Of a stretch of DNA of 64,000 bases, positions 11,001 through 57,639 are shown piece after piece. The notes beneath the pieces are model-generated. The model did not search any database. It was not told where the DNA came from and was given only the letters and a program-made list of their open reading frames with translations. The stretch's first letter is position 1. Every line of letters begins with the position of its first letter. Source of the DNA: Welwitschia mirabilis (Eukaryota); the NCBI GenBank assembly GCA_051453625.1, contig JBOZIK010000001.1, positions 10,422,550 to 10,486,549 on the forward strand. The letters are read 5' to 3'. The translations under genes were made by a program, and so were the position numbers.

Positions 11001-13610
11001 NNNNNNNNNNNNNNNNNNNNNNNNNNNNNNNNNNNNNNNNNNNNNNNNNNNNNNNNNNNNNNNNNNNNNNNNNNNNNNNNNNNNNNNNNNNNNNTCGTTA
11101 TCAATCATTACCCTATTACAACAAACGTTTTAGAATCTATTTGCCTATTATCCCATGTGTATGTGCCTCCTTCTATACAAACATCTAACAATCCAATAAG
11201 AGACTGCATTCAAAACTTTTAAAGTTCCTTGATGCCATCAATTATTACTACCCAATTTCTCGTCGTTGCTTATAACATTGTTAAGGTGTCCTATAAATGG
11301 TGTAGGTTTACCCCATCTAATGACTCTATGTGGAATGTCTTATCAAAAGGAGATCTTATCTTTGAACCATATAGGCCTATATATATTTACCAAAAGGCAA
11401 CTATTATTCATAATGACAGTAAAAAATTCGATATCAAGTTCTAAAAATCTACCTTTCACTCTTTTTTTTTTTTTTGAAGTGTCCCTAATATATTAGAATG
11501 ACCATTTGCCTCCTCACATACAAATCCAAAAACTTTCAAGTGTTTTGTATACTATTGCAATCATTAATTTGAGTTTTCTGCAAACACAAAAATATAGATC
11601 ATGATACATACATCGGTCCTTCATGGTTCCTTAACATGGGAGGTTATTACAACCTTTCCTGTTACATGACTGGATCCTCATTTTCTTGAGGAAGATGAGG
11701 TTCCTCCTCAACCATTTTGTAGCTCATATAGTGGTGGGTTAATTGATATTGCAAGCTTTTTAATGTTGCGATCCAAAATTTATAGTCCTTCAGGAAAATT
11801 GCTAAGCCTGAATAACAATTTTATCCTTCCATATATCAAAATATTAAGACAGTATTCAAGTTTTCTACATCTCTATTACTGTCAACATCCTCTACCATCC
11901 CCTTAAGTTGTCTCTTTTCCTCAATCCACCACACCACAAGCTTTTTTTCAATTGCATTCGAATGTTCTTCTTTAGCAGAATTTTCATCATTAAAACTCGT
12001 TATTACTTTGAAACAGCTTTATTTTGGTTACGATGATGTCCTATTTAGTAACAAATCATCATCATTATTATTATGTTAGGTTATACTATCTTTACACCCT
12101 TCTCATAGACTTCTTAATTTTGTACGTACTTAGGTACGCTAAATGTTTTTAAAGGTTAATATTAAATCTCTATTTAGGTTTAAACACCCTTTCCAAAACA
12201 TTTAGTGACTATAACCCTTTAAATATAGATATTAAACTCAAAACTTTTAATGACCATACTTGCCTTAAAAGCACAACCACCATGGTTCCTAAACAAATAA
12301 TTGAACTATGAATGCTGAAATCAGAACTCTATCGGACCTCCTCTCTAAGGTTTACTTGCCTTAAAAGCATAACTACCATGATTGCTCAAAAAAATAATTT
12401 TAATTAAACCCATGGCTTTATAATATGCCCATTAAGTCATTTAAAGGTTCAAACCTGTTCCCTCTTGAATGAAGAATGAATATCCCATTAATTAGACTAT
12501 CATACCCAACCCTTAAAGATATGACTTCTAGCTCTCTTTAATGTATGAAAAGATGCATAATGTATTTCTATAGACATTTTTCTTTTTGCAATCATATGAT
12601 TTTTACTTTCCAATATTATTTTCCCCTTCAAAAAATACAACTCATGTTATGAAACAAAACATTAAAGCCTTTCAATTTCTTTTTTACGTTAAAAGGTAAA
12701 ATTCATATTATGAAACAAAAAGGACATAATAAAATGAAGATTTTACTCTTGCCATGTTACATGTTTACTTCTCATTTGATTCTTGATTCTTATGTAGTTG
12801 AAATTTTGAATAACTCCTATAGTAAAACGAAGCTTTTACATTTTCACATCTTATATGTTTAATTCTCGTTTGATTTGATTCTTGTCTAATTGAAATTCTA
12901 AAATTATTCTTCTTTAATTCTTGTTTTGAGTAACTTTCATGATATTTACTGTCTCGCTAATTTGATGACAGATTGAGCATATAATCATTCGTATAATGTT
13001 TTGTTAAGGAATGAGCATATAAGTTTTGTCCTGCCTTATAATTATGAAGGAAACATACCGCTTCGACATACAACTTACAATATGAATTGTAGTTTAAACC
13101 ATACTTCAAACAACACACCATGCCTTATCCTAGATTTGGATAGGTTATTTGATCCTCATGTATAAGTCCTCAAGCTTATGAGGCACCCTTTTTAGCCCCC
13201 CAATATTCACATTCAAGAAATTGCCCAGCAATGCCAAAGTATATTTCAATATAGATTTTTGTCTTTATTTTTACTATACATACAACCACATACGATCTTC
13301 ATAAACCACAACTTGAGTGTATACAAGACGGTGGCTTTAACCCCGCAAAAAACCCCAAAGACACAAAACAACGAAAACCTATATTTACAGTTATATAACA
13401 GTGAGAATCGTCTCTCAATACCGAAGAGAGTTTTTAGAACTCAAAGGCGGTTTCATGACGAAGCTTAAATCCCTTTCAAAGGATTCTCAGATGGCGCTCC
13501 TCCGCTTCTCTGCAAAAATTAAAAATAATAAGTCTCAAATTCTCAGTGAAATTCACTCGCAGAAGTCTGTTTTGCGTCGAGGAATCGAAGAAACGGCAAA
13601 AGAACCAAAC
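8094..13610 (-). other. 5.5-kb GT-AG intron of the IF1-like gene
   Basis: Donor CAG|GTTTGG at 13610 and acceptor TGCAG| at 8094. Contains a decayed LINE. Confidence 0.65.
8828..12560 (-). mobile_element. Decayed L1-clade LINE (ORF1 remnants, APE endonuclease, RT), 3'-truncated, inside the intron
   Basis: Minus-strand peptides: MRIQSCNRKG (APE start, ~11681), KAPRADCVPTTFLKHYWDMIK (KAPGPDG-like), GLQQGNPNFPYLFILVMEGL (GLRQGDPLSPYLF-like) and HVLFVDDTILF (FADD-like). Weak ORF1-like EPWW near 12280. Many stops and frameshifts. Confidence 0.88.
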
Positions 13611-13859
13611 CTGCGCAGGCGCCGGAGGCTTCTGGGCGCGGAAAAGGTTTGAAAGATCTCCGTATTTCTTTCTGAGTTTCTCGAGCTTTTGTCTCTCCCA
13701 TTTCTGAATGAAAGCGCATTCTGAAGCTCTCTCTTTGTCATCGAAGAGTCTTCCTTTGTCATACGTGAAGAATCCCTTTCCTTTCCGCGGAATGCGTCCC
13801 CATTTCGCCAGATCTGGACCGATCATGCATCTTCTTGAAACAGGTGTTGCCAACGGCAT
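13611..13859 (-). CDS. Mitochondrial F1Fo-ATPase inhibitor (IF1)-like protein, exon 1
   Basis: Arg/Lys-rich, acid-poor N-terminus resembling a presequence, then DKGRLFDDKERASECAFIQKWERQKLEKLRKK. This matches the plant IF1 core (DKGRVLSEEERAKE..YIQKMERERLEKL, recalled from memory) and the F-x2-K/R-E-x-A-x-E-x2-Y/F pattern. CpG-rich context, upstream TATA, phase-0 donor after codon 83. Confidence 0.88.
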
Positions 13860-13929
13860 TCTTACCTTTTGAAACCCTTGCTTCTCCTCTCAAACTGTAG
13901 TTTTGCTTCGCTCAAAGATGTGTCTACTG

Positions 13930-38479: not shown

Positions 38480-41400
38480 TATCTATCATAAAATTATTTT
38501 TCAAATTTTATGGCCTAGATTTTGAAGATCCTTATGAACATTTTAGAGAATTTAAAGTCATAATTTCAACCATAGGAGATTAAGGTGAAGTATTTAGGAT
38601 GAAACTTTTCCCCTTTTCTTTGAAAGAGAAATTAAAATCTTGGCTAAAAAACTTGAAAACTTGTTCAATTAGGTTATGGAGAGATTTCATAGGTGAGTAC
38701 TTAAAAAAAATACTTCCTAGTACACAAAACTAATGAAACTAAATAAAATAATGGAATATTCAAAATAGAACAAAAAACCTATCTATAAGGGGTTTAAGTG
38801 CAGATCTACTAAAGAGATTCTCACAACATGATTTGGAGGCTTAGTGATTATTAAGATTTTTCTATAAAGAATTAACTACATAAAGTAGACAACCAATTGA
38901 GACGATAAGTGATGAAACATTCACATATAAAGAGCCATAGGGAGCATGGGATATGTTAAAAAACATAGTTGAAAGCTCTAAAAACTTGCAAAGAATCTTC
39001 AAAAATGAAAAAGTAAACAAAACGAAATCAACCTTATAAGGTTATAGGATATAAAATATATAAGTAGGATGAAGAAACAAACTTACATGAAACATTATAT
39101 TGCATCTTTAAGAGATTACATAGCCTTGAGACATCTAAACCTTGAATAGCTAGTTGTGGAGCTATATGTGTTGCATGTACCTTTCATGAACATGAAACAA
39201 GAGAATTCTCCTTTATTTCACTCTAGAAAGGGATAGCAAGGAATCATATGAACATGGTACAAGCTAAAAACCCTTTTAGATAATAACAATAGAAACCATA
39301 TTTCTTATACAAATTTTTATAGCTGAAATTAAAAAAAATTATCCTTGTTTCTCATGGAAAACGTAATAGAATGAAACATCTACCTTAAAAATCCTATTGC
39401 ATTTTAGAGTAGATCATTAGAAAAATTATTAAATAATTTACAAAATCCTAACTAGCCAACAATAAGAAATAAGATAAAATCAATAATCAAACTAATAAAT
39501 CTCTTTAACATTTAGATTAAGAAATGAACCAACTTTATTAAACTCTAACCTACTTTTTAATCTCACTTAACTAGCTTAAAAAGGATAAAATTCTAGAAAA
39601 CTTATTCCCAAGTTAAAGCGTTGCAATATGGTTGAAGAACAAGGAAAAGTTATTAGAATTAATATTATATCAATCAATAGTAATACCCAAATAAATGAAC
39701 ATATTCAACCACCTAAAGAAGATCCTTGTATAGCTAATCCTGAATCACAAATAACACTTGAAATTGAGAAAGTTGAATAAGATATCATGGATAGATTCAA
39801 ACATGAAGAACTAGAAAAGCTCCATTGCCCAAATGTCTTACATTAATAGAAAATAAATAACTTGAAGAAGAATACTCAAGAATTTTATGGAAGTGAAAAT
39901 AAACATCCCTCTTTTGGATTCTATCAATAAAGTACATTCGTATTATAAATTCCTTAAAGATATATGCATAGTAAAGAGAAAAATGAATGTCACAAAAATA
40001 CCTTTCTAGCCTAATAAGTGAGTGACTTAGTTTAAAATAAACTTCTGCTAGAGTTTAGAGATCCTAGTTCCTTAATAATCTCATATGTCATAGCCAAGAA
40101 AAACACAGATAAAACCTTAATACACTTGAGAGCTAGCGTGAACCTAATTCCTAATTCATTATGTAAAGAACTTGAATTGGAAAAACTAACAAAAATTAGA
40201 AGAACATTATAGCTTTCTGATTGCTTAAATAATATCCTCACAAGAATAGTAGAAGATAGTTTGGTATCAGTAGAAAAGTTTATTACCTAGTGAGCTTCAT
40301 AGGTTTAAGGATGGAAGATAACCCAATAGAATTTCCCCTTATCTTGAAAAAACCATTACTATGAACTTCTAACTCTCTAATCAATAGTAAAAATGGAATA
40401 GTAGAAATGTCCTTTAGAAAATGAATATAAAGTTGTAAGTCTTCAACATAATGAAGAAGAATCCTATGGATGATGTAAGGGAGTTAGATTTAGTTGAAAT
40501 GGATGAAGATGAAACACTTATATATTTATCCCTATTAGAAGATCACCCATTATATAAGCCTCATGGATAACTAGCACTTATCATCTAAAGAAACTCTAGC
40601 TTTGAAACATTTCATAAGAAGAATAAAATTTGAACATTTATTATGTGCACCATAAAGACAACCTTTAAGTGAAGAGTATGTCCATAATGTTAAACTTAAA
40701 TCTCTTCTAAAAGACCTAAAACATGTATTCCTAATTGAAAACTAACCTTACCTTATCATCTCCATAAAGATAGTTACTTCTTAAAAAGAATGCTTAGTTT
40801 CTTTGCTTAAACAACATAAGAAAACTATATGATGAATTATTTTTAACCTAAAAGAAATAAGTCTTATTATATCCATGCAAAAACTCCACTTGGAAGAAAA
40901 CATTAAGCTACAACACCCCAAATTTTTAATGTTGTATTGTTGAAGAAGCCTTTTGGGGGGAGGGGAGGGGGTGTCTTCTANNNNNNNNNNGTCAGACAAA
41001 TGGATTAGGTAAAGAACTTGAATTCAAAAAGCTATCAAAAATTAGGAGAACATTGTAACTTTCTGATTTCTTAAGCAAGATCTGCATAAGAATAATAGAA
41101 GATGGTTTGGTATAAGTAGAAAATTTTATTACCTAGTGAGCTTCATAGTTTTAAAAATGGAAAATAATCAAATATAAATTTTCCTTATCTTAGAGCAATC
41201 ATTCCTAGCAACCTCTAACTCTCTAATCAATAGTAAAAATGGACTAGCAAAAATGTCCTTTATGAAATAAATACAAATTTATAAGTCTTCAACATAATGA
41301 AAAATAATCCTATGGATGACGTAAGAGAGCTAGATTTAGTTAAAATGGATGAATATGAAACAATTATATATTTATCTTTGTTAGAAGATCATTCATTATA

Positions 41401-43436
41401 TAAGCCTGATAGAGAGCTAGCACTTATCATCTAAAGAAAGTCTAGCTTTGAAACATTTCCTAAGAAGAATAAATTTGAACATTTATTATGTGCACCATAA
41501 AGACAACCTTNNNNNNNNNNNNNNNNNNNNNNNNNNNNNNNNNNNNNNNNNNNNNNNNNNNNNNNNNNNNNNNNNNNNNNNNNNNNNNNNNNNNNNNNNN
41601 NNNNNNNNNNNNNNNNNNNNNNNNNNNNNNNNNNNNNNNNNNNNNNNNNNNNNNNNNNNNNNNNNNNNNNNNNNNNNNNNNNNNNNNNNNNNNNNNNNNN
41701 NNNNNNNNNNNNNNNNNNNNNNNNNNNNNNNNNNNNNNNNNNNNNNNNNNNNNNNNNNNNNNNNNNNNNNNNNNNNNNNNNNNNNNNNNNNNNNNNNNNN
41801 NAAACATTTCCTAAGAAGAATAAATTTGAACATTTATTATGTGCACAAAAGAAGAATAAATTTGAACATTTATTATGTGCACCATAAAGACAACCTTCAA
41901 GTGAAGAGTGTATCCAACTTAAACCTCTTCTAAAAGGTTTAAAAAATGCATTCCTAATTCAAAACTAACCTTATCTTATAATCTCCACAAAGGTAGTTAC
42001 TTCTTAAAAAGAATCCTTAGTTTCTATGCTTAAACAACAAAACAAGACTATAAGATGAATTATTTTTAACCTAAAAGAAATAAGTCTTATTATATGCATG
42101 CAAAAAATCCACTTGAAAGAAAACATTAATATTATATCAATCAATATAATAATTATAGTTGAAGAACAAGCAAAAGTTATTAGAATTAATATTATATCAA
42201 TTAATAGTAATATCCAAATAAATGAACATATTCAACCACCTAGAAAATATCCTTGTATAGCTAATACTGAACCATAAATAACACTTGAAATTGAGAAAGA
42301 TGAAGAAGATATCATGGATATATTCAAACACGAAGGACTAAGAAAAGCTCCATTGCCCAAATGTCTTACATTAATGGAAAATAAATAACTTGAAGAAGAA
42401 TACTTAAGAATTTTTATGGAAGTGAAAATAAACATTTCTCTTTTGGATTCCATCCATAAAGAACATTCTTATTCTAAATTCCTTAAATATATATTTATAG
42501 TAAAGATAAAAATGAATGTTACAAAAATACCTTTCTTGCCTAACAAGTGAGTGACTTAGTTTAAAATAAACTTCTACTAGAGTTTAAACATCCTGGTTTC
42601 TTAATAATCTCATATGTCATAGCCAAGAAAAAGATAGATAAAACCTTAATACACTTGAGAGCTAGTGTGAACCTGATTCCGAATTCATTATGTAAAGAAC
42701 TTGAATTGGAAAAACTAATAAAAATTAGAAGAACATTATAGCTTTCTGATTGCTTAAACAAGATCCCCATAAGAATAGTAGAAGATAGTTTGTTATAAGT
42801 AGAAAATTTTATTAGCTAGTGAGCTTCATAGTTTTAAAGATGTAAGATAACCCAATAGAATTTTCCCTTCTCTTTGAAAAAACATTCCTGTCAACTTCTA
42901 ACTCTCTAATCAATAGTAAAAATGGAATAGTAGAAATGTCCTTTAGAAAATGAATACAAAGTTGTAAGTCTTCAACATAATGAAGAAGAATCCTATGGAT
43001 GATGTAAGGGAGCTAGATTTGGTTGAAATGGATGAAGATGAAACACTTATATATTTATACCTATTAGAAGATCATCCATTATATAAGCCTCATGGAGAAC
43101 TAGCACTTATCATCTAAATAAAGTCTAGCTTCAAAACATTTCACAAGAAGAATAAATTTGCACATTTATTATGTGCACCATAAAGATAACCTTTAAGTGA
43201 AGAGTGTGTCCATAATGTTAAACTTAAGCCTCTTCTAAAAGACCTAAAACATGCGCTCCTAATTGAAAACTAACCTTACCTTATAATCTCCACAAAGATA
43301 GTTACTTCTTAAAAGAAATGCTTAGTTTGTATGCTTAAACAACACAGGAAGACTATACAATGAATTATTTTTTAACCTAAATAAATAAGTCTTATTATGT
43401 GCATGCAAAAAATCCACCTGGAAGAAAACATTAAAC
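38480..43436 (+). mobile_element. Decayed Athila-like Gypsy gag-protease region with an internal ~1.3-kb triplication
   Basis: FYGLDFEDPYEHFREF, MKLFPFS, EVKINIPLLDSINKV, KFLKDIC and TLIHLRASVNLIP (DLGASVNL protease-like). Copies at ~39630-40908, ~41010-42129 and ~42158-43436. Confidence 0.9.
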
Positions 43437-45934
43437 TGTAACACCCCAAATTTTTAAAGTTGTCTTGTTGAAGCCTTGGGTGGGGGTCTTCAAACTTCAA
43501 CCTCGAATTCTAAACAGCAATTGGGGTGGCATGCAGAGGTGGGAACAGTAGGAACCCAATTCAACTGCAACCAGGAAACCTTCATCACAGTTCATTCATC
43601 GCATTCTGTCTGGAAATCGAAACAGCATTTCGGCGCATTGGTTACTTTTTTGGATGATTATTTTCAGTTTGAGCTGCTAATGTTTTTCATGTCAATGCCT
43701 TCCGCAACAGCAGCAGCTACGTCCGCTGCTTGGAGCCAAACAAATCCCTTGCAGATTATATCAGGTAGAATCCTTAGTTGCAGCGTAAACCTTATCAAAA
43801 ACACAACTCGGAAATCTAAGAGATCAGAGAATATTATATGCGCTGTAACAGTGCCACTGCAACCGCAATAACGTTCTTCTGCTTCCCCTAGTTCTGTAAA
43901 GAAGGCACACAACATGTGACTGAAACCTGAAACGAAGCGGCACTAGAGTTCTGGAGAAGCAGAATGGCGATGATGGCCATACGCCTGCCCTGGCTACACA
44001 ACTTAGAACTCTGTCTCTTTAACTGAAAGGTCTGTGTCATGATGCATCGAGGAAGAAGCCATTCCAAGAGCGCGATTGCGAGGAAATAGGCATTCATAAT
44101 GCAATACTAAGTTTTAAGTTTTCTTTTCGGCTCCTCATTGCTTTTGTAGTTTAACCTAATTTCCATGTATTTTCTATTCTCTGTGTTTATATTGTAGCCT
44201 CTTGTGTCCTAGTTTCATTTTGGTATATCTACTTTTTCAGACCGTCCTTTTTTTTTAACTTTTTTTTAAATCTCTTTAGTTTGGGTGATTCTAGTATCTA
44301 CATGATAAGCCCTTTTATTTGTCAAAGCAGTTGAATGTTTACATTTTATTTCATGACAAGTACAATTGGTGAATAGAAATATGCCTACCTCAAAACCACT
44401 GCTACAATTCTAGTTGGGCCTTTCTACATCTTACAGTACATTTAAACATGCTACAAAAGGGACTTGAAGGTCTAACATTAGAAGATAGGACTTCTTTCAC
44501 AAATTTTTAGAAAATGATTAATGGTTATAGTAATAATTTCATACGGATAATGGCTTTGTCATCTATAAGCCTCAACAAGTGCAACGAATTTGATCACGTT
44601 TTCAACTCAAAATTACTTGGCTCGCATTATAGGGCTATGAAATGCCAACAAAGCTAACTACTCTTTGGAGATCCACCAGGAATAAAGAAAACAACAATTT
44701 GATAAATGAAATAATCTTAAAGATATTAGCTTTAGGTGACATTTTATTAAAGTCTTAAAAACTTTCAAGTTCTAAAGATGTTAAACCAAACTGCATCTAG
44801 GTTAGTGTGATGAGACTTGTCAAATCAATATTTAACCGTGTTAAGGGGATAAATTTTATAGGATAAGGCACTTGAGATGAATAACTAGCATCTTTGATTG
44901 TCTTTAAATTAAGCATCTCCCCATTTAAAGTGGGTTAACTTCATCATTTTCTCACATTTCCCCTCTTTAAGTTACAAATGTTATTTTAATAGTAGCTACT
45001 ATTGACTGCTTATGATGTATAAGTATTATGTCTTTTGAAAAGTAGACAACTAAATTCTTTACAAATATTTGATTTGTGCTTTGATAGTTTTGAGTAACAA
45101 ATTTTGAAGCCTTAAAATCTATAGAAATGCATTACCTTCAAAAGTCTAAGCTGCATCCTAACTAATTGCTACCACTACCATTCCTAAAATTTTATCCAAA
45201 TTAGAACTGAAGTAGATTTTATCAATTTATAATTTTCACTTCTAAATAACGTTTAGGTCCACAACTTGTGTTTTTAGTTTTAAAAATGTAGAAAGATCCT
45301 TATGCTTCAAGGAAAAATACCATTACAATGTTTCTTACTCTTCCCATCAAATAATACTATACATAGTATTAGTTAGTATTGACCTAAGCTATCTTGTAAA
45401 AAGTATGGAGCCTTACCAACTCATAAACATAATGGAGCTTGTATAATGTAAATCTTTATCCATATTCCTCTTAAGTATATTAATAACATGATCTCCCATT
45501 CCATAAGATCATGTACATGAATAAATTGCTATAAATAAATCTTTATAATAAAACACTAATCTTTAAGACAAACAGAAAATGATGCTTCATAGTCAAAAAG
45601 CCAACTTTAAAAGCAAAATTTTAGTGATGAAATAAGATAAGTTTAAAAGAGTCCCTTAAGATGTGATAAGGCATTCTACTACAAGAAGGAATACTTCATC
45701 TAATTTGTCATAGGTTCCTTATCTTCTCATAGAGTATCATGTCTTCCATAATGATGCTAAGGTATTTATCTTATAATCTGTTTAAGAATTGATATCATTT
45801 AATTGTCCTTTCATCTTAAAACATAGCAGTTTTAGTAATAGATCTCAGTCTTATTATTTTTATCTAGTTAGTATGAAACCATGCTTAAATTACATAGTAG
45901 TTAAATTGTTTATGTTATGCCTTTTTCTGTATCT

Positions 45935-46240
45935 ATTAATATTATATTATTATACTACATACATGACATACATATTATATTACATAATACATATGTATAA
46001 TATTACATATGTATTATACTATATTATATTATATGCATAATATTATATCATATTATGTTATGTTTTCCTATTATATCATATTAAATTAATGTTATATGCA
46101 TAATATTATATCATATTATATATTATACTATATTATATCATAATATTATATTATTATACTACATACATGACATACATATTATATTGCATAATATTATATT
46201 ACATACTACATATGCATAATATTACATATATATTATAAAG
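45935..46240. repeat. AT-only low-complexity (ATTAT-like) expansion inside the 5' LTR
   Basis: Repeated attat/tacata units; the matching tract in the 3' LTR (~51820-51940) is much shorter. Confidence 0.8.
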
Positions 46241-47615
46241 GGTAGACATGTTCAATTATTACCTTGAAATGTATTGATGGGTGAGAGGGATTTCAAACGC
46301 AACATTTTGGTAATTATACCTTCCCCTTAAAGTACAGTTACCATGACTTCCTAAATAAAGAATGAGCATCCATTAGCTAAACTATCACAATGTTCATGTT
46401 ATCGTGCTTAAACACATTTTAATTTTACGTTAAATGTATAATATATTATTCAAAGTAGGTTACACATGATATGCTTATGATATTATGCTTATGTTGGGAA
46501 AAATATGCATTATTAATGCTATATGATTTACATATGGAAATAAAATTATATGTAATGGAATAGTTTAAGGTATTAAGCTAGAAAACTAATAACTATAATT
46601 ACTATCTTTTGATATATATATATATATATATATATTAGTATTTTAATATGGGATATCTACTCTTAGGTTGAATAATTATAGTGTCATTGTCAATTTTTAT
46701 TAATAAGGACATCGGTCAAGAAAAAATGACTAGAAAACATTGATAATAGCAATTATAATGTTAAGGTGGAAAATACCTTGAACCCAATAGAAGAATTGGA
46801 TAGCTTAATAAATTCATTAGTCATGATGACCCTTAGAGGTAAATAAATATATACTTGTATATAGGAAATAACATGATTAAATTTCTTTTTATTATTTTAT
46901 TAGCATTATCAGTATTTTAATTTGTAGATTTAGTTTTATTATGTTATCATTATGAAAGAAGTAGTTATGGATTCCCCTATAATAATAGTGTGTGCTTTTG
47001 TGATTTAATGTAAGTATGTATGCATATTCTAGTTATACAATGATGAAAGATTAGCAAATTCCTCAATGATTACGATCACTTCTAGTAGGCCTAACACATT
47101 CCAAGTATGTATCCTTAATGTATTTTCTTATATGTTTATGCATATGAATTAAATTTCTTAAGTAGTTATTTCTTACCCTATATATAAAATGATATAATAT
47201 TAGTGATTTTTATATGATGCTTATTAAATTAGTTAAGCACTTTATTAGCTTTCATTATTCTTTAACTTTTATCAAGCTAGGTCTATTAATACTAGTGGTC
47301 TAATTAGTGGCATATAGGCTAGTTCCTTTTGGAATTTTATGTATTTATATATTATTAATTGATTATGTTATGTTATGTTATAAAAAGAACAACTATAAAG
47401 TACCCTACCAAAATGGCTTATGTGTGTGTATGTATGTGTGCAAGCTAGCTGCATTTTTGCATGGGTTTAGTATAATAAAATTCTATTATGATACTTTCCT
47501 TCCATTAGCTCTCACTGAGATGTAAGAGAATAGAGGGGTTTTTTATGCTTGGTGATTGAGGTACTAATGGATATTTTGGCCAAGTAATCAAGGGATTTAC
47601 TATCCTCTCTCTCTC

Positions 47616-47619
<4 letters not shown>

Positions 47620-47650
<31 letters not shown>
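47620..47650. repeat. (TG)n microsatellite next to a gap
   Basis: Perfect TG run. Confidence 0.95.
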
Positions 47651-48441
47651 NNNNNNNNNNNNNNNNNNNNNNNNNNNNNNNNNNNNNNNNNNNNNNNNNN
47701 NNNNNNNNNNNNNNNNNNNNNNNNNNNNNNNNNNNNNNNNNNNNNNNNNNNNNNNNNNNNNNNNNNNNNNNNNNNNNNNNNNNNNNNNNNNNNNNNNNNN
47801 NNNNNNNNNNNNNNNNNNNNNNNNNNNNNNNNNNNNNNNNNNNNNNNNNNNNNNNNNNNNNNNNNNNNNNNNNNNNNNNNNNNNNNNNNNNNNNNNNNNN
47901 NNNNNNNNNNNNNNNNNNNNNNNNNNNNNNNNNNNNNNNNNNNNNNNNNNNNNNNNNNNNNNNNNNNNNNNNNNNNNNNNNNNNNNNNNNNNNNNNNNNN
48001 NNNNNNNNNNNNNNNNNNNNNNNNNNNNNNNNNNNNNNNNNNNNNNNNNNNNNNNNNNNNNNNNNNNNNNNNNNNNNNNNNNNNNNNNNNNNNNNNNNNN
48101 NNNNNNNNNNNNNNNNNGCATAGCTGTTGATGTAACCAACCACTCAACTGCAACTTGCACACTTCTTTTATGTGTTCCTAATTGAGATCTTAGGAATTAG
48201 ATTTAAGTGAAATCTTCATGTGACTATTTAATAATTTTAATATTGGATGTGACATTAATAAGGTGAGCTATTATCATATAGATCTCCTAAGGTGTACCCT
48301 ATGGGTAACTAAGAGATAACTCTCTCAGTCATAAATTAATTGATTATCTTTGATAACTACTTATGTAATGTAATTTAATTGACTTATATAAAAAATAAAA
48401 TTATACTCCTTAAGCTTAGCCTTAGGCTAGGTTGTGATAGT

Positions 48442-48453
48442 TGGTATCAGATC
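48442..48453 (+). other. Primer-binding site for initiator tRNA-Met
   Basis: TGGTATCAGATC (canonical TGGTATCAGAGC), 2 nt after the LTR end. Confidence 0.9.
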
Positions 48454-48548: not shown

Positions 48549-51500
48549 GATAACACCCCAAATTTTTAATGTTGTATTGTTGAAGAAGCCTTGAATGGAG
48601 CTCTTCAATATTCATCATTAAATTTTGAGTAATAATTGGGATAGCATGCAGGGATCTGTATGCAATACAAATGGCTTATGGAGAGGATAGCTGGAAACAA
48701 TGGAAATTCAACTCAACTACAAGTAGAAAACCTTCATTGTAGATAACTCTTCACATTTTGTCTAAAAACTGAAATGGCATTTCTCTGCATTAGTTACTTT
48801 TATGGATTATTATTTTTAGTTTGAATTGCTAATGGTTTTTAATCAATTTCTTTTGCAATAGTAGCAAGTACTTCCCCTACTTGGAGCCAAACAAATCACT
48901 TATAGATTGTATCAGGAATAATCCTTAACTATAACATAAAGCCTATAAAAAAATACAACTCCAAAATGTAATAGATTAAGGAATATCATGCATGCTATAA
49001 TGGCACCACCACAACCCCAACACATTCTCCTGTGTCCACTAGTTCTATAAGAAGGCTCTACTAATAATAAAGAAGATCTTATTGAAAGCCTAGGGTAAAT
49101 CGTATTTGAGTTCCAATAAAAATGAAGGTTTTCAATAAGGTGCACAACATTTGATTAAAACCTAAAACAAACTATCATGACAGTTTTGAAGAAGCAAAAT
49201 GGTAATGATGATCATAAGCTTACTAGGCCATTAAAATTTACTAGCTACATGACTTAGAACTCCATTTATTCAATTTAAAGATTCATGTTATAATGCATTG
49301 GAAAAGAAGCCTTTTCAAGAGTGGGGTTCAGAGGAAGTTGATCTTTTGTTGCATTTTTATAATCCCCTATGATAGAGAAGTGATTACTTACAATCCTTCA
49401 ATCCAAGTTAAACATTCCAAAATTTAGTAGAAAAAGGTTGTAGGTTTGTGTTGCATGTGTAGGAGCACATTAAATTAATTTGATAGGATAAAATAAGGTA
49501 TTTTCTTGCATTTTGTGTTCATTGTTTATGCTCTAAGTAATGGCTTGATTCATCAGATGCGATTAGATTTGACTTGAAGCTAGTTTTAACACTTGTTACA
49601 GATACGTCTCCCCTTTTAGAGGGATTTTTCTCATGAGTTGATGTCTATATTTTTCAGTATGCTATTTTGTATTATGTTAAGAAAAGAACATTCAAAATTC
49701 CTATTTATCTTTTTGTTTATAGAGAAAATAAAAGTAAAGTAGAAATAAGTCTCATAATAGATTTCTATCTTAGCATAATAAGATTTTTTGATAAAGGGAC
49801 TTTTGATAGCTAAACTTTTGCTAAGTATGGTTAATAACAGAGGGATTAAATTTTCTTTTTTTGATTTCTATACGAGTAAGACATAGATGAAATCCTTTCT
49901 TAATGTCCTTATCCTTTTCATTTGTGCCTTATACAAGTCTAGTTTTTTGTTTCCCCAATGATGCATGCTAGATATTTGTAATGCAATAGTAAGTTTTAAG
50001 TTTTCTTTTGAGATCCTTATTACTTTTGTAGCTTAATCTACTTTCCATTTATTTTCTATTCTATGTGTTTATATTGTGGCCTATTATGTCTTGGTTTCAT
50101 CTTAGTATATCTACCTTTTTAGAATGTCTTTTTTTAATCTCTTAGGTTGTGTGATTTTAGTATCTTTATGATAATTCCTTTATTTGTTAATATGGCTAAA
50201 TGTTTACATTTTATTTGATGACATGTACAACTGATAAATAGAAATATGCCTAGTTAATAACCATTTCTACAATTCTAGTTAGGCCTTTCTACATCTTACA
50301 GTACATTTAAACATGATACAAAGGGATCTAAAAGTCTAATATTAGAAGGTAGGAATTCTTTCATAAATATTTAGAAAATGATCAAGGATCATATTAATAA
50401 TTTCATAAGGCTAATGTATTTGTTATATAGAAGCCTTAGACAAGCATAATGAATTTGAACATGCTTTTAACTCAAAATTACTTGGCTTTCATTGTAGGGC
50501 TACCAAATACCAAAAAAGTTAACTACTCTTCAGAAACCCACCAGGAATAAAGAAAACAATAATTTGATAAATCAAATAATCTTAAAGATGTTACCTTTAG
50601 ATGATAATGAAAAAATTTTATTAAAGTATTAAAAACTTTTAAGTTCTAAAGATGTTAAACTAAAACTACCTCTGAGTTAGTGTGACGAGACTTGTTAAAT
50701 TAGTATTTCACTATGTTGAGAGGATAAATGTTATATGATAAAGTGTTGGAGATGAATAAGGCTGACTTACATCTTTGATTTTTTTTTTTGTATGGAGTAT
50801 CTTCCCATTCAAAGTTAGTTAACTTCATCATTTTCTCACATTCCCCCTTTTTAAGTTACAAATGTTATTTTAATAGTAGATCTTATTAGTTTTTTATGAT
50901 GTTTAAGTATCATGTCTTTGGTAGAGAGCCAAGTTCTTGACAAATAATTGATTTGTGCTTTGATATTTACAAGTAAAAAATTTTGAAGCCTTAAAATCTC
51001 TAGAAATGAATTACCTTCAAATGTCTAAGTTGCATCTAGGTAATTGCTTCCACTGCCATTTATAAACATTCATTCAAATTAGAATGACAGTAGTTTTTAT
51101 CAATCTACAACTTTCACTTCTAAAATACATTTAGGTCCACAACTCATGCTTTTATATTTAAAAATATAGAAATATCATTAGGCTTTTAAGAAAAAATACC
51201 ATTACAAATTTCTTGGTTTTCCCATCAAATAACACTAGACATAGTAATAATTTTCTATTGATCTAAGCTATCTTGTAAAATGTATGAAGCATTATCAACT
51301 CGTAAACATAATGGACTTTACCTAATGTAAATACTTATCCACCTTCCTCTTAAGTATATTAATAACATGGATTGCACATTCCACAAGATTATGTACATGA
51401 ATAAATTACTATAAATAAATGTTTATGATAAAACACTAATTTTTAAGACAAAAATAAAATTATTCTTCATAGTCAAAAAGCCAACTTTAAAAGAAAAATT

Positions 51501-53830
51501 TTACTAAGGAAATAAGCTAATTTGAAAAATGTTTATTAAGATGTGACAAGGAATTATACTATAAGAAGGTATACTTTATCTAATTTATCATAGGTTCCCT
51601 ATCTCATCATGGAGTATCATGTCTTCCACAATGATGGTAAGGTATTTATCTCATACATTCATTTGAGAATTCATATCATCTAATTGTCCTTTCATCTTAA
51701 AACATGGTGGTTTTAGTAATAGATCTTAGTCTCATGTATATTTGTTCGGTTAGTATGAAACCATGCTTAAGTGACATAGTATTCCAATTATTTATTGTTA
51801 TGTCCTTTTATTTATTTATTAATAATATATTATTATACTACATACATAACATATGTATTATATTACATAATATATGCATAATATTATATTACATAATATT
51901 ATGTTATCTCATACGCATAATATTACATATATATTATAAATAGATAGACATACTTAATTATTACCTTAAATTGTATTGATGGGTGAGAGGGATGTCAAAC
52001 TCAACATTTTAGTAATTGTACCTTTCCCTTAAAGTACAACTATCATAACATCCTAAATAAAGAATGAGTACTCACTAGCTAGGCTACCATGATGTTCATG
52101 TTTTTGTGCTTAAAAATGTTTCATTTTTAAGAGTTAAATGTATGACATATTATACAAATTACATTACATATGATATGCTTATGATAGTATGCTTATGTTG
52201 GAAAAACAGTGCATTAGTAATGCTATATGGTTTACATATTAAAATATTATTATGTGTAATGGAATAGTTTAAGGTATTAAACCAAAAAATTAATAACTAT
52301 AATTAATAGCTTTTGATATACATATTAGTCTTTTCATGTGGGAGATCTACTCTTAGATTGAATGATTGTAGTGTCAATATAAAGTTTGATTAATAAGGAC
52401 ATCAATCAAGCAAAAATGGTTTAGAAAACATTGATAATAACAATCATGATGTTCAGGTGGAAAATACCCTAAACCTAACAAAAGACTTGGATAGCTTAAC
52501 AAATTCACTATTTATGATGGCCATTAAAGGTAAATAAATATATACATGTATATACAACATAATATGCTTGAATTTCTTTTTATTATTTTATTAGCATTAT
52601 AAATATTTTAATTTATAAACTTAGGTTTATTAATTTCGCATTATAAAAGTTGTCGCTATGGGTTGTCCTATTGTAATAATGTGTGTTTTTGTGATTCAAT
52701 GTAAGTATGTATGCATATTATAATTATATAATGATGCAGGATTAGACCATTTCTCAATGATTACTATTGCTTCAAGTAGGTCTAATGAATTCTAGATATG
52801 TATTCTTAATGTATTTTCTTATATGTTCATGCATATGAATTAAATGTCTTAAGTAGTCTTATCCCATACATAAAATGACATAATATTAGTGATTTTTCTA
52901 AGATGCTCATTGAAATAGTTAAGCATTTAATTAGCTTTCTTTATCATTTACATTCTATCTTGCTTAGTCTATTGAGACTCATGATTTAATCAGTTGCATA
53001 CGAGCTAGTTCCTTTTGCTGTTTTATATAATTATATATTATTAGATTGATTATGTTATTCTATAAAAGGAGCATCTATGAGGTACCTTGTCAAAATGGCT
53101 TTTATGTGTGTATGTATGTGTGTTTTAATCACATTTCTACATGAGTTTACTATAATGACATTCTCTTATGATATACTTTTCTCTCAATTGCTTTCACCAA
53201 GACATGGGGAGAATAGAGGGCTGTTTTATGCTCGATGATTGAGGTGCCAATGAATACTTTGGCCAAGTGACTAGGGGTTCACTATATATATACACATTTG
53301 GATAAACATATATTATTTATATTAATATACATATGTATTATCATCATTCATGCCTTAGAATTCCTTGTTAGAAATGGATGTTCTGACATTAAGAGTTTTT
53401 GACTAGCTATGTCCTATATTTTTATATAGTGTATGATATCTTTTGGTGTTGTTTTTATTTTGTTTGGAACCATACCATTTTCTAGTTGAGTTTCACATTG
53501 ATTTGTTGCATTAGTTCATACATATTTTTACCCACATGCCCACTAATATGAACCAACTTCATCTATCTTATGATCATGTGTATTGGTGGAGATGGAAATA
53601 AGACACAAGATAGAATTATGTGTAATTTGAACTTCTCTAGATAAGGAGACATAAACGTGGTTGCTTAACTATTAATGCAATCAATCACTTAACTACAACT
53701 TCCACACTTCTTTTGTGTGTTCCTAATTGGGAGATTAGGAATTAGATTTAAGTAAAATCTATCATGTAATCATTTAATAAATTTAAGATTAGATGTGATG
53801 TTGATTAGGTAAGCTATCGTCATATGGGTC
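48549..53830 (+). mobile_element. 3' LTR (~5.3 kb, last ~150 bp missing) of the same element
   Basis: Starts GATAACACCCCAAATTTTTAA after a decayed PPT region (tttctagggattaaaaattcttaaggg). Aligns with the 5' LTR up to aagctatcgtcatatgggtc. Confidence 0.88.
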
Positions 53831-53839
53831 ATGAGTCTT

Positions 53840-54520
53840 ACTATTCTCTAGATATATATTTAGGATATAAATAGATATCTATTGCCTTTAGAAACTACAA
53901 AAATACTACTTCACATGCTAATTTAAAACTTTTTCTTATGAGAGAATGCCCTTTGACCTTTATAATGCCTTAGTTATTTCCAATGGTGTAGGATGAGTAT
54001 CGTATTTGATATGATTAAGAAATTTGTTAAAGTTTTCATGGATTAGTTTTTGTTTTAGTAAAACTTTTAACTCTTAACTATGTCATTTATAACTTATTCT
54101 TACATGTAGCAAAGAGAAAAATTTTGTGCTTAATTAAAAAATGTAACTTCATAATTAAAAAGAATATAGTTTTAGGACATGTAATTTATAAGGGATAGAA
54201 ATAAACCCTGAAAACATTTAACTTATCACTTATCTTCCCCTTCTTAGAAGTGTTAAGGATGTTAGATATTTTCTTAGATATATTACTTATTACATAAGAT
54301 TTATTAAATACTCTTTAAACTCTCAAAACCCTTAATAAATCTTCTAATTAAAGATGTTTCTTTTAACTAAACCATCCCTACATGTAATAATTAATTTTAA
54401 AAATCAAAACATCTATTGGTTTCGTATCCTATCTTATAATCTCCTAATTATTCTTTTCCTTTTGAGGTTTTATGTGATGTAAGGAATTTTACAACATGAG
54501 CAGCCATAGGTGGATGAAAT
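53840..54520 (+). mobile_element. Decayed Athila-like RT / RNase H start, continuing the element interrupted at 43436
   Basis: LDIYLGYK*ISIA..NTTFTC*FKTFSYERMPFDLYNA, KVFMD*F, PFEVLCDVRNF. Confidence 0.88.
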
Positions 54521-56992
54521 GATGGGAATTGTTGTGATTCATATCTGTGCAAATGTTACTTCCTCAAATAGATCTTGTAAATCATAAATATATATAGATT
54601 TTAAATAACACAACATACTATTATAGATTAGAGTAACTCAAATGTAATATTTGAATTAAAGGCTTAGGGGAGAAGAAAGAAAATTAATTTTACAAATGAA
54701 ATACTATATTCTCAAAGTAAAATAAAATAACAATGTAAATAAAATGCAAGTCTAAAATAAATGTAACTTCTGTTCAATTACCAAATTAACCTGTCATAGA
54801 GATCGACTTTGTATAATCTAGATCAATCAAAAAAAGCTGTCATCGGATCAAAACCAACTTAAGATATTAAGTACATTTAATAGAATATGAAAATAATGAA
54901 AAGTTAATCTAGAAAATGAAATGCAATGNNNNNNNNNNNNNNNNNNNNNNNNNNNNNNNNNNNNNNNNNNNNNNNNNNNNNNNNNNNNNNNNNNNNNNNN
55001 NNNNNNNNNNNNNNNNNNNNNNNNNNNNAATCAAAACATCTATTGGTTTTGTATACTATCTTATAATCTCCTACTTAGTCTTTTCCTTTTGAGGTTTTAT
55101 GTGATGTAAGGAATTTTACAACACGAGCAGCCATAGGTGGATGAAATGATGGGAATTGTTGTGATGTATATCTGTGCAAATGTTACGTCCTCAAATTGAT
55201 CTTGTAAATCATAAATATATATAGATTTTACATAGCATAACATACTAATATAGATGAGAATAACTCAAATGTCATATTTTCATTAAAGGCTTAGGGGAGA
55301 AGAAAGAGAATTAATTTCACAAATGAAATACTATATTCTCAAAGTAAAATAAGATAACAATGCAAATAAAATGCAAGTCTAAACTAAATGTAACTTCTGT
55401 TCAATTACCAAATTAACCTGTCATAGAGATCGACTCTGTATAATCTAGATCAATCAAAAAAAGCTGTCATCAGATCAAAACCAACTTAAGATATTAAGTA
55501 CATTTAATAGAATACGAAAATAATGTAAAGTTAATTTAGGAAATGAAATGCAATGCACCTAAACTAACAATGTCAACCTTAACANNNNNNNNNNNNNNNN
55601 NNNNNNNNNNNNNNNNNNNNNNNNNNNNNNNNNNNNNNNNNNNNNNNNNNNNNNNNNNNNNNNNNNNNNNNNNNNNNNNNNNNNATCTATAAAATGAAAT
55701 GCAATGCACCTAAACTAACAATGTCAACCTTAACAAAGGTTTCCCTCATGATATATATCACTAAAGAAATTGTCACAGAATCAAAGACAACATAAACCAT
55801 AAGGGAGATGCATAAAATAAAACATATAAAAAGCAAAATAAAGTTCTAATTAAAAGTGATCCAGCATCTGTGTTACAAAGCAGCGGCATCTCAATGAAGG
55901 ATACACAGCCTGATACCAAGGAAGATGTCTCTCTCTAATAACAATGGATGAACCTACAACCCTTTAATCTCTTGTCATGAGAATTTCCAGTGCAAACGAA
56001 AAGATAAACAGAGTCGAAGACAAAGGAATTATTTATTACAAATAGATTCTAAAATCAGAAAAGGCTAATAGACATGTAAATAATCTTAACAACTATACAA
56101 GAAAGTTAAATGACCAGAGTTTAATGAAGTTTAGTTAATAATTTATCTCAGGTATCATTCTGTTGGTTATTTGAACATCATAGGAGATGATGCCACATCA
56201 TATAAGTTCCACATTAGCTAACAGATTTGGTCTAGTAAGCATCCCTCTTTACTTAAGTGTTTCTATTGTCTGTACCATTGTATGGATGATGAAGTGAATG
56301 ATAGGGTTTTTTGAACTATTCCATGTGTTGTATGGGTCCTTTTGTTTACAAGATTATTACTTCAAATAGGAAGTATTGTAAATTTAATGAAACACTATAA
56401 AATATAATGAAGATCGCATGTTTTCATGACATTCGCTTTAGTTCTCCATTATCATCAAAATTCAGAATAGACTTATCTAATATCCTACAAAACTACTTAA
56501 AATACCCTATCAAATACATATAGTTTGATAGTGCAACATAGCCATCCCCTTAGTATTATACTTTTCTAACAAAACTAGGTGAACCACCATGATTTTGAGC
56601 CAAATTGTCTAATAACAAATCAATTAAAGACTATTAAATAAACTCAGAAAGATTTTCGAAAATCTTAGAATATGAACACAAAACTCAAAAAATAGATAAT
56701 TGAATTTTTTTACTTGTGCAATTTAATTTGGTTGTACTATTATCCAAGAAGTAATTCAAACTATGTAGGGGATAATAGGCTAAAAAACTATTCTTAAAAG
56801 ATAGAAGCCTATGAAATTTTTTCCCAGAAAGGTAGGCATTATATATATATTATAGCCCTTCATTAAAATNNNNNNNNNNNNNNNNNNNNNNNNNNNNNNN
56901 NNNNNNNNNNNNNNNNNNNNNNNNNNNNNNNNNNNNNNNNNNNNNNNNNNNNNNNNNNNNNNNNNNNNNNNNNNNNNNNNNNNNNNNNNNNN

Positions 56993-57056
<64 letters not shown>

Positions 57057-57062
57057 ACACAC
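56993..57062. repeat. (AC)n microsatellite
   Basis: Long AC run next to a gap. Confidence 0.95.
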
Positions 57063-57639
57063 AAACACATGGAGGGAAAGGTACAAAAATACAATAATAA
57101 ATAGTCACTCCTCTTATTTGATTATAATAAATTCCCGATGAATGGTAGGCTCAAGTGTAGGAGGAGAAGAGGGAAAATGCTTAGAATCTATTAGGGAAAT
57201 GATGGTCAAGTGATATAATAATAGTCTACATCATCTCGTCTCCTTGTACTCGAACTATCTCTAGGAGATCCACCATCACACTCTACTCTATCTATAGGAT
57301 GTGCTATCACACATCTGCTAGTTACTTCTTAGTGTACTATACTTTCCTCTTAATCATATAGATCATATGCTTTAATGAAGAGATGTTTCGATCTATAGTT
57401 ACTTTGATAGTCTTAGTACTCTTCATCGAAAGGGTCTAAATCTATTTTAGTGAAGTGCAAACCATAAGTCTTTGAACCTGAGTACTCTTTACCTCTTCTA
57501 GTACCTAGATGCCCATGTGTTATAGGTCATAAGTTGAAGTCTATATGTGCATGAATTACTACTCACCTATAGGCTCTGATATACCAAAGCGTCTAAACAT
57601 GACTGAGAGGAGGTACAAATATCCTAAAGTCTGAAGTTG

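Follow-up and report, generated by a model that had tools for sequence, protein, structure and literature searches.

Background

Silenced plant transposable elements (TEs) lose CpG and CHG sites through methylation-driven decay, and the divergence between the members of an LTR pair is used for dating. The locus described here lies in a 64,000-nucleotide stretch of Welwitschia mirabilis DNA (the window) and consists of two sister copies, A and B, of a long LTR-like repeat. Copy B and the distal part of copy A have decayed as expected for silenced elements. Unlike standard decay, however, the process was strongly heterogeneous along one LTR and differed between the sisters, in that a CpG-rich island stands near the 5' end of copy A and has only a decayed homolog in copy B.

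The closest precedents for such a patch come from maize, where unmethylated regions have been described by Crisp et al. (bioRxiv 10.1101/2020.05.21.109744) and where TEs contain 19% of the distal accessible regions according to Noshay et al. (bioRxiv 10.1101/2020.05.20.107169). Like the maize regions, the island is a discrete sub-kilobase patch in an LTR-type element, unmethylated-like amid a silenced remainder. Unlike in those regions, its state is read from a mutation pattern built up over millions of years, its sister at a distance of 5 kb provides an internal control, and no expression of the locus was seen in two RNA-seq libraries.

A second precedent is the capture of gene fragments by plant LTR retrotransposons, treated in a review (PMC13317346) that refers to Jiang & Ramachandran 2013 on rice and sorghum. 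According to Muyle et al. (bioRxiv 10.1101/777037), CG methylation is slightly lower in TEs that have captured fragments than in others (95.5% vs 98.5%), a small average effect that is far exceeded by the difference between copies A and B. As in such transduplication cases, part of the TE here is homologous to a low-copy locus that is expressed. Unlike in those cases, the donor is known from reads alone, the coding status of the fragment is unproven, and the fragment lies within the LTR itself.

Organization of the repeat pair

Two long direct repeats lie in the same orientation in the window, 43439-48284 against 48551-53830, with 67-82% identity by block. Copy A (43437..48439, + strand, ~5 kb, start TGTAACACCCC) is homologous to B up to 48284 and is interrupted by a 467-N gap (47651-48117); its probable end at ~48439 is placed by the PBS-like word that comes next. 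Copy B (48551..53830, + strand, start ATAACACCCC) is without the last ~155 bp of A. The first letters of the copies are TGTAACACC in A and ATAACACC in B; the putative end of A, ...GGTTGTGATAGT, loosely mirrors its start, and the end of B is missing. The PBS-like word, TGGTATCAGATC (48442..48453, + strand), is the only such match; across both strands of the 64-kb window, 0.19 were expected. It agrees at 11 of 12 letters with what we take to be the primer binding site for the initiator tRNA-Met.

Copy B starts only ~110 bp past the putative end of A and has a weak purine run (TTAAGGG) ahead of it. A Pfam scan of the open frames found no gag or pol domain in these ~110 bp, and the nearest gag remnant lies at 38584-38730 (E=4.5e-4). 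No target-site duplication of the repeat pair was seen; B is truncated at 53830, and family-internal sequence precedes A. An earlier note on this DNA, made from the letters and their open reading frames, had taken the copies for the 5' and 3' LTRs of one element. The long direct repeats and the PBS-like word speak for this assignment, but the normal internal region of such an element is absent, and we refer to the repeats as a probable LTR pair.

Upstream of A, repeated non-coding units occupy 39627..43437 (+ strand), with 39627-40945 being ~91% like 42154-43473 and partial copies lying between; they are probably the 3' end of the family's internal region, which is rich in repeats. Within them a third repeat start, copy C (40910..40980, + strand), has an A-type upstream unit before it and is cut off by a 10-N gap. 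Complex or tandem arrangements of LTR retrotransposons with a shared middle LTR were reportedly described by Sabot and Schulman in 2007. Copy A resembles such a middle LTR in having family-internal sequence before it and a PBS-like word after it. Unlike in such an arrangement, however, the second internal domain would be only ~110 bp long and the window holds no third full LTR, and scaffold gaps make the layout uncertain. Copy B also contains a segment of ~630 bp with no counterpart in A (49337..49968, + strand), situated between the island homolog and the remainder of the repeat. Terminal (inverted) repeats and a target duplication are absent, as is a second copy in the window, and the segment may be either an insertion in B or a deletion in A.

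A CpG-rich island in copy A

The island (43476..44100, unstranded, 625 bp) has 21 CpG and 36 CHG sites, a GC content of 0.45 and an observed/expected (o/e) CpG ratio of 0.66. Its decayed homolog in copy B (48589..49336, + strand, 748 bp) has 1 CpG and 9 CHG sites, GC 0.32 and o/e 0.05. These figures reproduce the counts in the earlier note, which had given 21 CG for 43501-44100 and 1 for the homologous stretch of B at ~48601-49336, and both pairs of C>T and G>A examples quoted there were found in the MAFFT alignment of the copies. In this alignment, B has kept the CpG state at 0/21 of the island CpG of A; 13 of these positions now read TG, CA or TA in B, and 8 have a transversion on one side. 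Downstream of the island, copy A has 13 CpG in 3550 bp (o/e 0.20) and copy B has 8 in 3307 bp (o/e 0.14), in keeping with the remark in the note that A past ~44300 is nearly as depleted as its partner.

The island is the sole CpG-rich stretch within 16000-64000, with CpG near expectation against a depleted background (0.66 vs 0.05-0.20). When 625-bp segments were slid across this range, at least 15 CpG were found in 19 of the 1550 segments, all 19 of which start at 43326-43776; outside the island segments the maximum count was 7.

Substitution pattern and age of the two copies

Copies A and B differ at 171 of the 623 aligned island sites, a mismatch rate of 27.4% vs 17.1% outside the island. 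The mismatches are strongly directional, with C or G in A and T or A in B at 99 sites vs 31 sites with the reverse (binomial p=1.8e-9). Because C>T and G>A are in balance (47 vs 52), the decay is of the double-strand type, and single-strand editing during reverse transcription was rejected as its source. A weaker excess of C/G kept in A extends into a right shoulder (44101..45100, unstranded; 69:38, p=0.0035), and from 45101 onward the asymmetry is absent (120:112, p=0.65); the island differs from this far remainder with a Fisher p of 4e-6. Taken as a whole, 44101-47650 shows a slight C/G excess in A (203:154). A left shoulder was found upstream of the repeat start (43201..43437, unstranded), where the flank of A has C/G and the flank of copy C has T/A at 15 sites, vs 3 with the reverse (p=0.0075); further upstream, the two flanks are symmetrical (18:22). 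Since the left-shoulder asymmetry crosses the repeat boundary, it is more in line with a chromatin domain than with a process limited by homology.

Transversions behave differently from transitions. They separate A from B at 41/623 sites in the island (6.6%), 57/977 in the next 1 kb (5.8%) and 145/2285 beyond (6.3%), and their divergence stays level, at 5.3-6.6%, over the length of the repeat. With flat transversions and a locally confined transition excess, A and B are therefore equally old and differ only in local C-to-T decay. The Kimura distance between them is ~0.20 by our own arithmetic on the alignment counts. Because decay in the island is heterogeneous with respect to the remainder (27% vs 17% mismatches), an LTR-based age estimate would be biased if the island were included.

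The contrast between the copies also depends on sequence context. Among the island cytosines of A, those that are now T/A in B make up 53% at CHG (38/72), 38% at CG bases (16/42) and 27% at CHH (45/167). Where B has kept C/G, loss in A is ~0.17 (uncorrected) in the island and ~0.20 in the remainder, a small difference, and the protection of copy A thus appears to be visible mainly at CG and CHG.

Copy A has therefore undergone a local, context- and lineage-specific slow-down of C>T, the most probable cause of which, judging from the mutation pattern, is absence of methylation. The earlier note had proposed that the segment had long been unmethylated in the germline. Escape from methylation-type C-to-T decay since the A/B split is upheld by the counts given above (99:31, 69:38 and 120:112), and the unmethylated state itself is suggested by mutation patterns only. 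The sister pair serves as an internal control of the same origin, age and neighbourhood, and would illustrate how the local methylation state shapes sequence decay.

An expressed paralog of the island

Reads and contigs revealed that the genome contains, at another place, an expressed low-copy paralog to which the island is homologous and which is CpG-richer than the island itself; this relationship is new with respect to the earlier note. RNA-seq reads from two libraries, X14 and X17, cover 43609..44113 (unstranded), and nearly all of them are <90% alike to the locus (242/250 in X14 and 347/350 in X17). None of 600 reads in these libraries was >=99% like the locus, and at each of 36 listed diagnostic sites at most one read was without the letter of the paralog. 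Given this low likeness and the fixed differences, the RNA derives from an expressed paralog and not from the locus; RNA-seq signal over a TE-borne island can thus come wholly from a paralog, which calls for caution. The reads match the locus within 43609-44113 alone and then continue into unlike sequence (share 0.72-0.78), and one DNA contig of single-copy depth (3.9-4.2) has the same letters as the RNA paralog. Homology to a low-copy expressed locus, limited to the segment and with unlike flanks, is the mark of a captured fragment.

Using the paralog as outgroup, we polarised the changes in a three-way count. Differences between RNA and locus were counted from the sites listed and are lower bounds, with fewer sites where read depth is low, and some changes assigned to B may belong to A or to the paralog; for this reason the main count was limited to the well-covered part, 43656-43906 (249 sites). 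In this stretch, 16 changes are private to A (8 C>T/G>A and 6 transversions) and 44 to B (31 and 8, respectively; p=4e-4), which makes private C>T ~4-fold lower in A, and 12 further changes relative to the paralog are common to both copies. Of 14 inferred ancestral CpG, 5 were lost in A and all 14 in B (Fisher p=6e-4), leaving 9/14 vs 0/14. Purifying selection behind the CpG retention was rejected, since the private transversions of A are not reduced. Over 382 sites, A differs from the paralog at a minimum of 36 of those listed (>=36). Among the listed sites, those at which A and B agree against the RNA number 12 in 43656-43817 and 1 in 43818-44054. An 84-bp piece, present in both the RNA paralog and copy B, has been deleted privately in copy A.

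Origin of the island

The explanation that we favor, and regard as reasonably probable, is that the island is a captured transcript fragment that has been unmethylated in copy A only. The ~5 kb LTR-like repeat has this ~0.6 kb segment at its 5' end; the segment would be derived from, or share a common origin with, the low-copy expressed locus, and in the simplest form would be a captured transcript fragment; we infer that the element captured the segment and not the reverse. The segment would already have been in both sister copies at their origin. In copy B it would have been methylated like the remaining element, with deamination removing all of its CpG and most of its CHG. The segment of copy A and its shoulders (~0.25 kb upstream and 0.5-1 kb downstream) would have been largely free of cytosine methylation in the germline since the split, and most CpG and CHG would for this reason have been kept. 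In other respects the segment of A would have been in neutral drift, as suggested by its private stop, private deletions and normal transversion rate.

An extension of this explanation is possible but doubtful, namely that the fragment of A has been maintained for several million years as an unmethylated, stable epiallele with a silenced sister 5 kb away, the cause being either a distal regulatory role or moderated silencing of a donor-homologous fragment (an epigenetic conflict). If true, the locus would offer a natural experiment, within one locus, on how persistent plant DNA methylation is and what it costs in mutations.

The earlier note had instead proposed a candidate LTR-derived enhancer or promoter. 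We consider it unlikely that the patch was exapted as an enhancer or as an alternative promoter, with the ATPase-inhibitor gene ~30 kb away as one conceivable target. That gene, called IF1 in the note, is an open frame in a CpG-rich patch (13479..13889, - strand) with a weak match to IATP, the family of mitochondrial ATPase inhibitors (E=6.5e-4, below the curated cutoff). A putative unmethylated state with shoulders would resemble the unmethylated or accessible regions within maize TEs, and the CpG-rich state is also found in the allele of X5, a run with a second organism label (5 differences in 764 nt). The two RNA-seq libraries, however, gave no transcription of the locus, with at most one non-paralog read per listed diagnostic site (36) and 0/600 reads >=99% alike. 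RNA-seq had been suggested in the note as a check, and in both libraries the reads at 43609-44113 carry the letters of the paralog and not those of the locus. Nor is there a sign of constraint, since private transversions in the 249 sites are at a neutral level (6 in A vs 8 in B) and A has both a private stop and the private 84-bp deletion; likewise, no link was found between the patch and the gene at 13479-13889. The regulatory proposal is thus unsupported. Should methylomes confirm an unmethylated patch with shoulders, the locus would be a candidate TE-borne unmethylated region, a type of patch already known in plants.

Quite improbable is that gene conversion or replacement by a younger, less decayed copy, either the paralog or a family member, refreshed the island of A. 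The island core does fall where low-copy paralogs show homology (about 3 other contigs reach >=80% likeness), and the listed sites with one letter in both A and B and another in the RNA cluster in 43656-43817 and are rare in 43818-44054, so that an old tract is possible, although these counts are lower bounds. However, A differs from the paralog at >=36 listed sites in 382, has 12-13 changes in common with B, and carries 16-18 private changes with about neutral transversions, which together mean that copy A evolved independently for the full time. Furthermore, private letters of A, such as that at 43747, occur in none of the 3 other contigs, the asymmetry reaches flanks without homology to the paralog, and A-B transversion divergence is the same in the island as elsewhere. 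The earlier note had raised a near-identical young copy as a source of the island; no near-identical second copy was present among the run contigs.

It is very unlikely that A and B are not sisters and that A is simply a younger and hence less decayed insertion. The complex structure, with family-internal sequence before A and a PBS-like word after it, and the slight C/G excess in A over 44101-47650 would fit such a history, but the symmetry past 45101 (120:112), the flat transversions (5.3-6.6%) and the similar numbers of private island transversions (6 in A vs 8 in B) all argue against it.

An assembly artefact, in which CpG was restored by a chimeric join or by collapsing many copies into one consensus, is extremely improbable even in a gapped scaffold (5251 N in 21 runs in the window, with the third repeat start cut by a 10-N gap), since independent DNA contigs from two runs with different labels, ~99% identical to the locus and of single-copy depth (~5), bridge the island, and since the low depth over it (1.2-18) indicates no collapse. 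These are X1 contig record 1 (1177 nt, 43263-44446; 8 other letters and 7 gaps), X1 being perhaps the source sample of the assembly, and X5 contig record 8 (764 nt, another organism label, 43263-44026; 5 other letters). The assembly is sound at this locus, and the chimera that the earlier note had allowed for was not found.

Coding content and gained CpG sites

An open frame of 137 codons, stop to stop, overlaps the island (43458..43871, + strand), and its stop, TAA at 43869, occurs in A only, since copy B and the RNA paralog each have C at this position. Pfam scans of 49 frames of >=75 aa and 85 of 48-74 aa found no family for the island frames on either strand. The 137-aa frame had 0 matches at E<=1e-10 among 1.84 billion protein representatives; at E<=1e-3 there were 2 hits, both of them repetitive proteins and considered spurious. 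There is no codon-position signal in the frame, with 4/4/4 sites over positions 1/2/3 for 12 of the 13 listed, hand-assigned sites at which A and B agree against the RNA; the remaining one, 44022, falls past the stop. Since the open frame is without a protein relative, the "gene fragment" may be a non-coding or orphan transcript. In Rfam, 42500-45500 gave only two sub-threshold snoRNA-like matches (20 bits vs gathering thresholds of 40-50), both outside the island, and a tRNA scan of the whole window found none.

Additionally, at least 2 of the 21 island CpG of copy A are gains or polymorphisms and not simple retentions. The CpG at 43864 stems from a C>G change private to A, and for the CpG at 43809, position 43810 reads C and not G in the DNA contigs, among them the contig of the locus itself.

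Island composition and assembly

The CpG/CHG-rich 5' segment of copy A (the island, 43476-44100) contains 21 CpG and 36 CHG sites, with a GC content of 0.45 and a CpG observed/expected ratio of 0.66, versus 1 CpG, 9 CHG, 0.32 and 0.05, respectively, for its homolog in copy B (48589-49336), the second of the two LTR-like direct repeats. A MAFFT alignment of both copies, in which the two sequence pairs quoted in the earlier note were both found, confirmed the contrast: none of the 21 island CpG is preserved in copy B, 13 reading TG, CA or TA and 8 carrying a one-sided transversion. Two copy A CpG are not retentions: the one at 43864 stems from a C>G change private to A, and for the one at 43809 the contigs from the locus have C at position 43810. 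Among 1550 sliding 625-bp windows over 16000-64000, all 19 with at least 15 CpG overlap the island, and the highest count outside it is 7.

Logan contigs of two DNA runs and raw reads of two RNA-seq runs were matched to 42700-45700 at 80% likeness. An 1177-nt contig from DNA run X1, perhaps the assembly's own sample, spans 43263-44446 and differs there at 8 letters and by 7 gaps, and a 764-nt contig from X5, which has a different organism label, spans 43263-44026 and differs at 5 letters. Because these contigs, at a single-copy depth of ~5, bridge the left island boundary and, for X1, the right one too, a chimeric join or collapsed consensus was rejected for the island; the chimeric assembly that had been raised as an alternative was thus not borne out. 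At 43810, 43817, 43256, 44107, 44861 and 44871, all matched X1/X5 contigs, including those from the locus, differ from the window letter, which we read as strain differences or window assembly errors.

Asymmetric decay of copies of equal age

Transversions, which are independent of methylation, differentiate copies A and B at a flat rate: 6.6% (41/623) in the island, 5.8% (57/977) in the shoulder (44101-45100) and 6.3% (145/2285) in the far rest (45101-47600). Sites with C/G in A and T/A in B, set against the reverse, number 99:31 in the island (p=1.8e-9), 69:38 in the shoulder (p=0.0035) and 120:112 in the far rest (p=0.65). The two copies are therefore of the same age and, well away from the island, have decayed to the same extent, and the proposal that copy A is simply younger was rejected. 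This age argument requires only an identical origin of A and B, which holds for an LTR pair or a tandem duplication. The Kimura distance of ~0.20 (44101-47650; 357 transitions and 206 transversions over 3302 sites) would correspond to the order of 5-10 million years at the commonly used rice LTR rate. The asymmetry continues past the left boundary of the repeat: against the flank of copy C, a third repeat start, the ratio is 15:3 in 43201-43437 (p=0.0075), and it is 18:22 in 42154-43200.

Mismatches between A and B reach 27.4% in the island (171/623 aligned sites) versus 17.1% in the rest of the repeat. T/A stands in copy B at 53% of copy A island cytosines in CHG context, 38% of CG bases and 27% in CHH. 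C>T and G>A occur in similar numbers (47 and 52), so single-strand editing was rejected; both context pattern and strand balance are as expected from deamination of methylated double-stranded DNA.

An expressed paralog as outgroup

Within 42700-45700, reads from RNA-seq libraries X14 and X17 were confined to 43609-44113. Nearly all were less than 90% alike to the locus (242/250 in X14, 347/350 in X17), none of the placed reads from either library was at least 99% alike, and among the 36 diagnostic sites listed at most one read per site lacked the non-window letter; the reads therefore derive from an expressed paralog at another place in the genome. The same letters appear in a DNA contig at depth 3.9-4.2, and a loose-end consensus of the reads has more CpG than copy A. 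An 84-bp piece present in both this consensus and copy B is absent from copy A, so the deletion happened in A. An open frame of 137 codons ends in copy A at TAA 43869, where the RNA has CAA and B also has C. This frame matched no Pfam family, and a search of 1.84 billion representative proteins yielded no credible relative and none at E<=1e-10, the 2 weak matches both being repetitive proteins.

With the paralog letters as outgroup, among the differences listed for the well-covered stretch 43656-43906 (249 aligned sites), lineage A has 16 private changes (8 C>T/G>A, 2 T>C/A>G, 6 transversions) and lineage B has 44 (31, 5 and 8; binomial p=4e-4 for 16 versus 44), with 12 changes common to both and 4 three-state sites. 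Equal transversions beside a four-fold gap in C>T/G>A match the prediction from a methylation difference between the copies. The RNA-covered blocks have 14 inferred ancestral CpG; lineage A has lost 5 of them, each through a transition, and lineage B all 14 (Fisher p=6e-4). Across the full set of blocks (382 sites), the differences listed (40 rows, with 675 more outside them) give 18 changes for A, 84 for B and 13 common to both; the listing is incomplete where RNA depth is low, and the B count is probably inflated.

Interpretation

The best reading of these patterns is that a captured segment decayed in B and that copy A holds a largely unmethylated domain. A transcript-derived segment would already have been present at the repeat 5' end at the origin of the two copies. 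The B version would have been methylated and have decayed faster than the CG/CHG-poorer remainder of the repeat. The domain that would have stayed largely unmethylated in the germline in A covers ~43200-45100 and has 43476-44100 as its core. Refreshment of the island of A by gene conversion is less favoured than such a chromatin domain, since the asymmetry shoulders reach past the paralog homology as well as past the repeat boundary. The private changes of A and those common to A and B show that the paralog did not recently overwrite it. The earlier note's interpretation is partly supported: a long-unmethylated island fits the polarised changes, and its candidate promoter or enhancer, ~30 kb upstream of the only gene, is unsupported, because the island of copy A, with transversions at a neutral level, a stop of its own and private deletions, is free of sequence constraint and no transcription from it was found in X14 or X17, although it may yet act as an enhancer.

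Unmethylated or accessible patches within plant TEs are already documented: Noshay et al. (bioRxiv 10.1101/2020.05.20.107169) report 2,793 accessible regions, most of them inside TEs, and assign 19% of distal accessible regions to TEs. LTR retrotransposons are likewise documented to capture gene fragments, with epigenetic consequences, by Muyle et al. (bioRxiv 10.1101/777037), where TEs with captured fragments are slightly lower in CG methylation, and in the review PMC13317346. The present locus would be a fresh example of both, and its useful point is that the sister copy serves as an internal control.

Repeat anatomy and other window features

By self-comparison, 43439-48284 of copy A, interrupted by a 467-N gap, is homologous to copy B (48551-53830). 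The window has three occurrences of the repeat-start word AACACCCCAAATTTTTAA, at 40912, 43440 and 48552. The word TGGTATCAGATC at 48442-48453, PBS-like by comparison with the canonical motif, is the sole such match in the window (chance expectation 0.19). Because it lies ~158 bp past the end of A-B homology, copy A probably ends at ~48439 and copy B lacks the final ~155 bp; only ~110 bp separates A from B. Non-coding units upstream of copy A (39627-43437), ~91% alike, spaced ~2.5 kb and tandem or dispersed, also precede copy C (40910-40980, cut by a 10-N gap). Copy A may therefore be a middle LTR shared within a complex arrangement that has lost nearly all of its second internal domain, on a scaffold with 21 N runs (5251 N in total).

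DNA depth is 1.2-18 in island bins (43508-44113) and far higher, 122-362, in the upstream units (42801-43305); it steps from ~11 to 43-566 at 44619 (44619-45700), which we read as a distal repeat either common to a far more abundant family or holding a nested high-copy element in A and B. Several N runs have a length of exactly 100 N, the others ranging over 8-897 N, and repeat structure beside them needs caution. Two 199-bp stretches, 54402-54600 and 55029-55227, 95% alike on either side of a 100-N gap (54929-55028), may be redundant contig ends or a local duplication. Dinucleotide-type simple repeats (47616-47650, 56993-57080) adjoin gaps at 47651 and 56870-56992, which are probably unassembled microsatellites.

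Another CpG-rich patch (4101-5700), which lies outside the annotated gene, has up to 24 CpG per 625 bp, and open frames of at least 75 aa near it matched no Pfam family. Remains of other mobile elements are zf-RVT (19225-19434, E=1.9e-14), DUF659 (28798-28965, E=6.9e-13), RVT_1 (8831-9124, E=6.7e-7) and RT_RNaseH (62946-63188, E=5.7e-17), all on the minus strand, and a weak Retrotrans_gag on the plus strand (38584-38730, E=4.5e-4).
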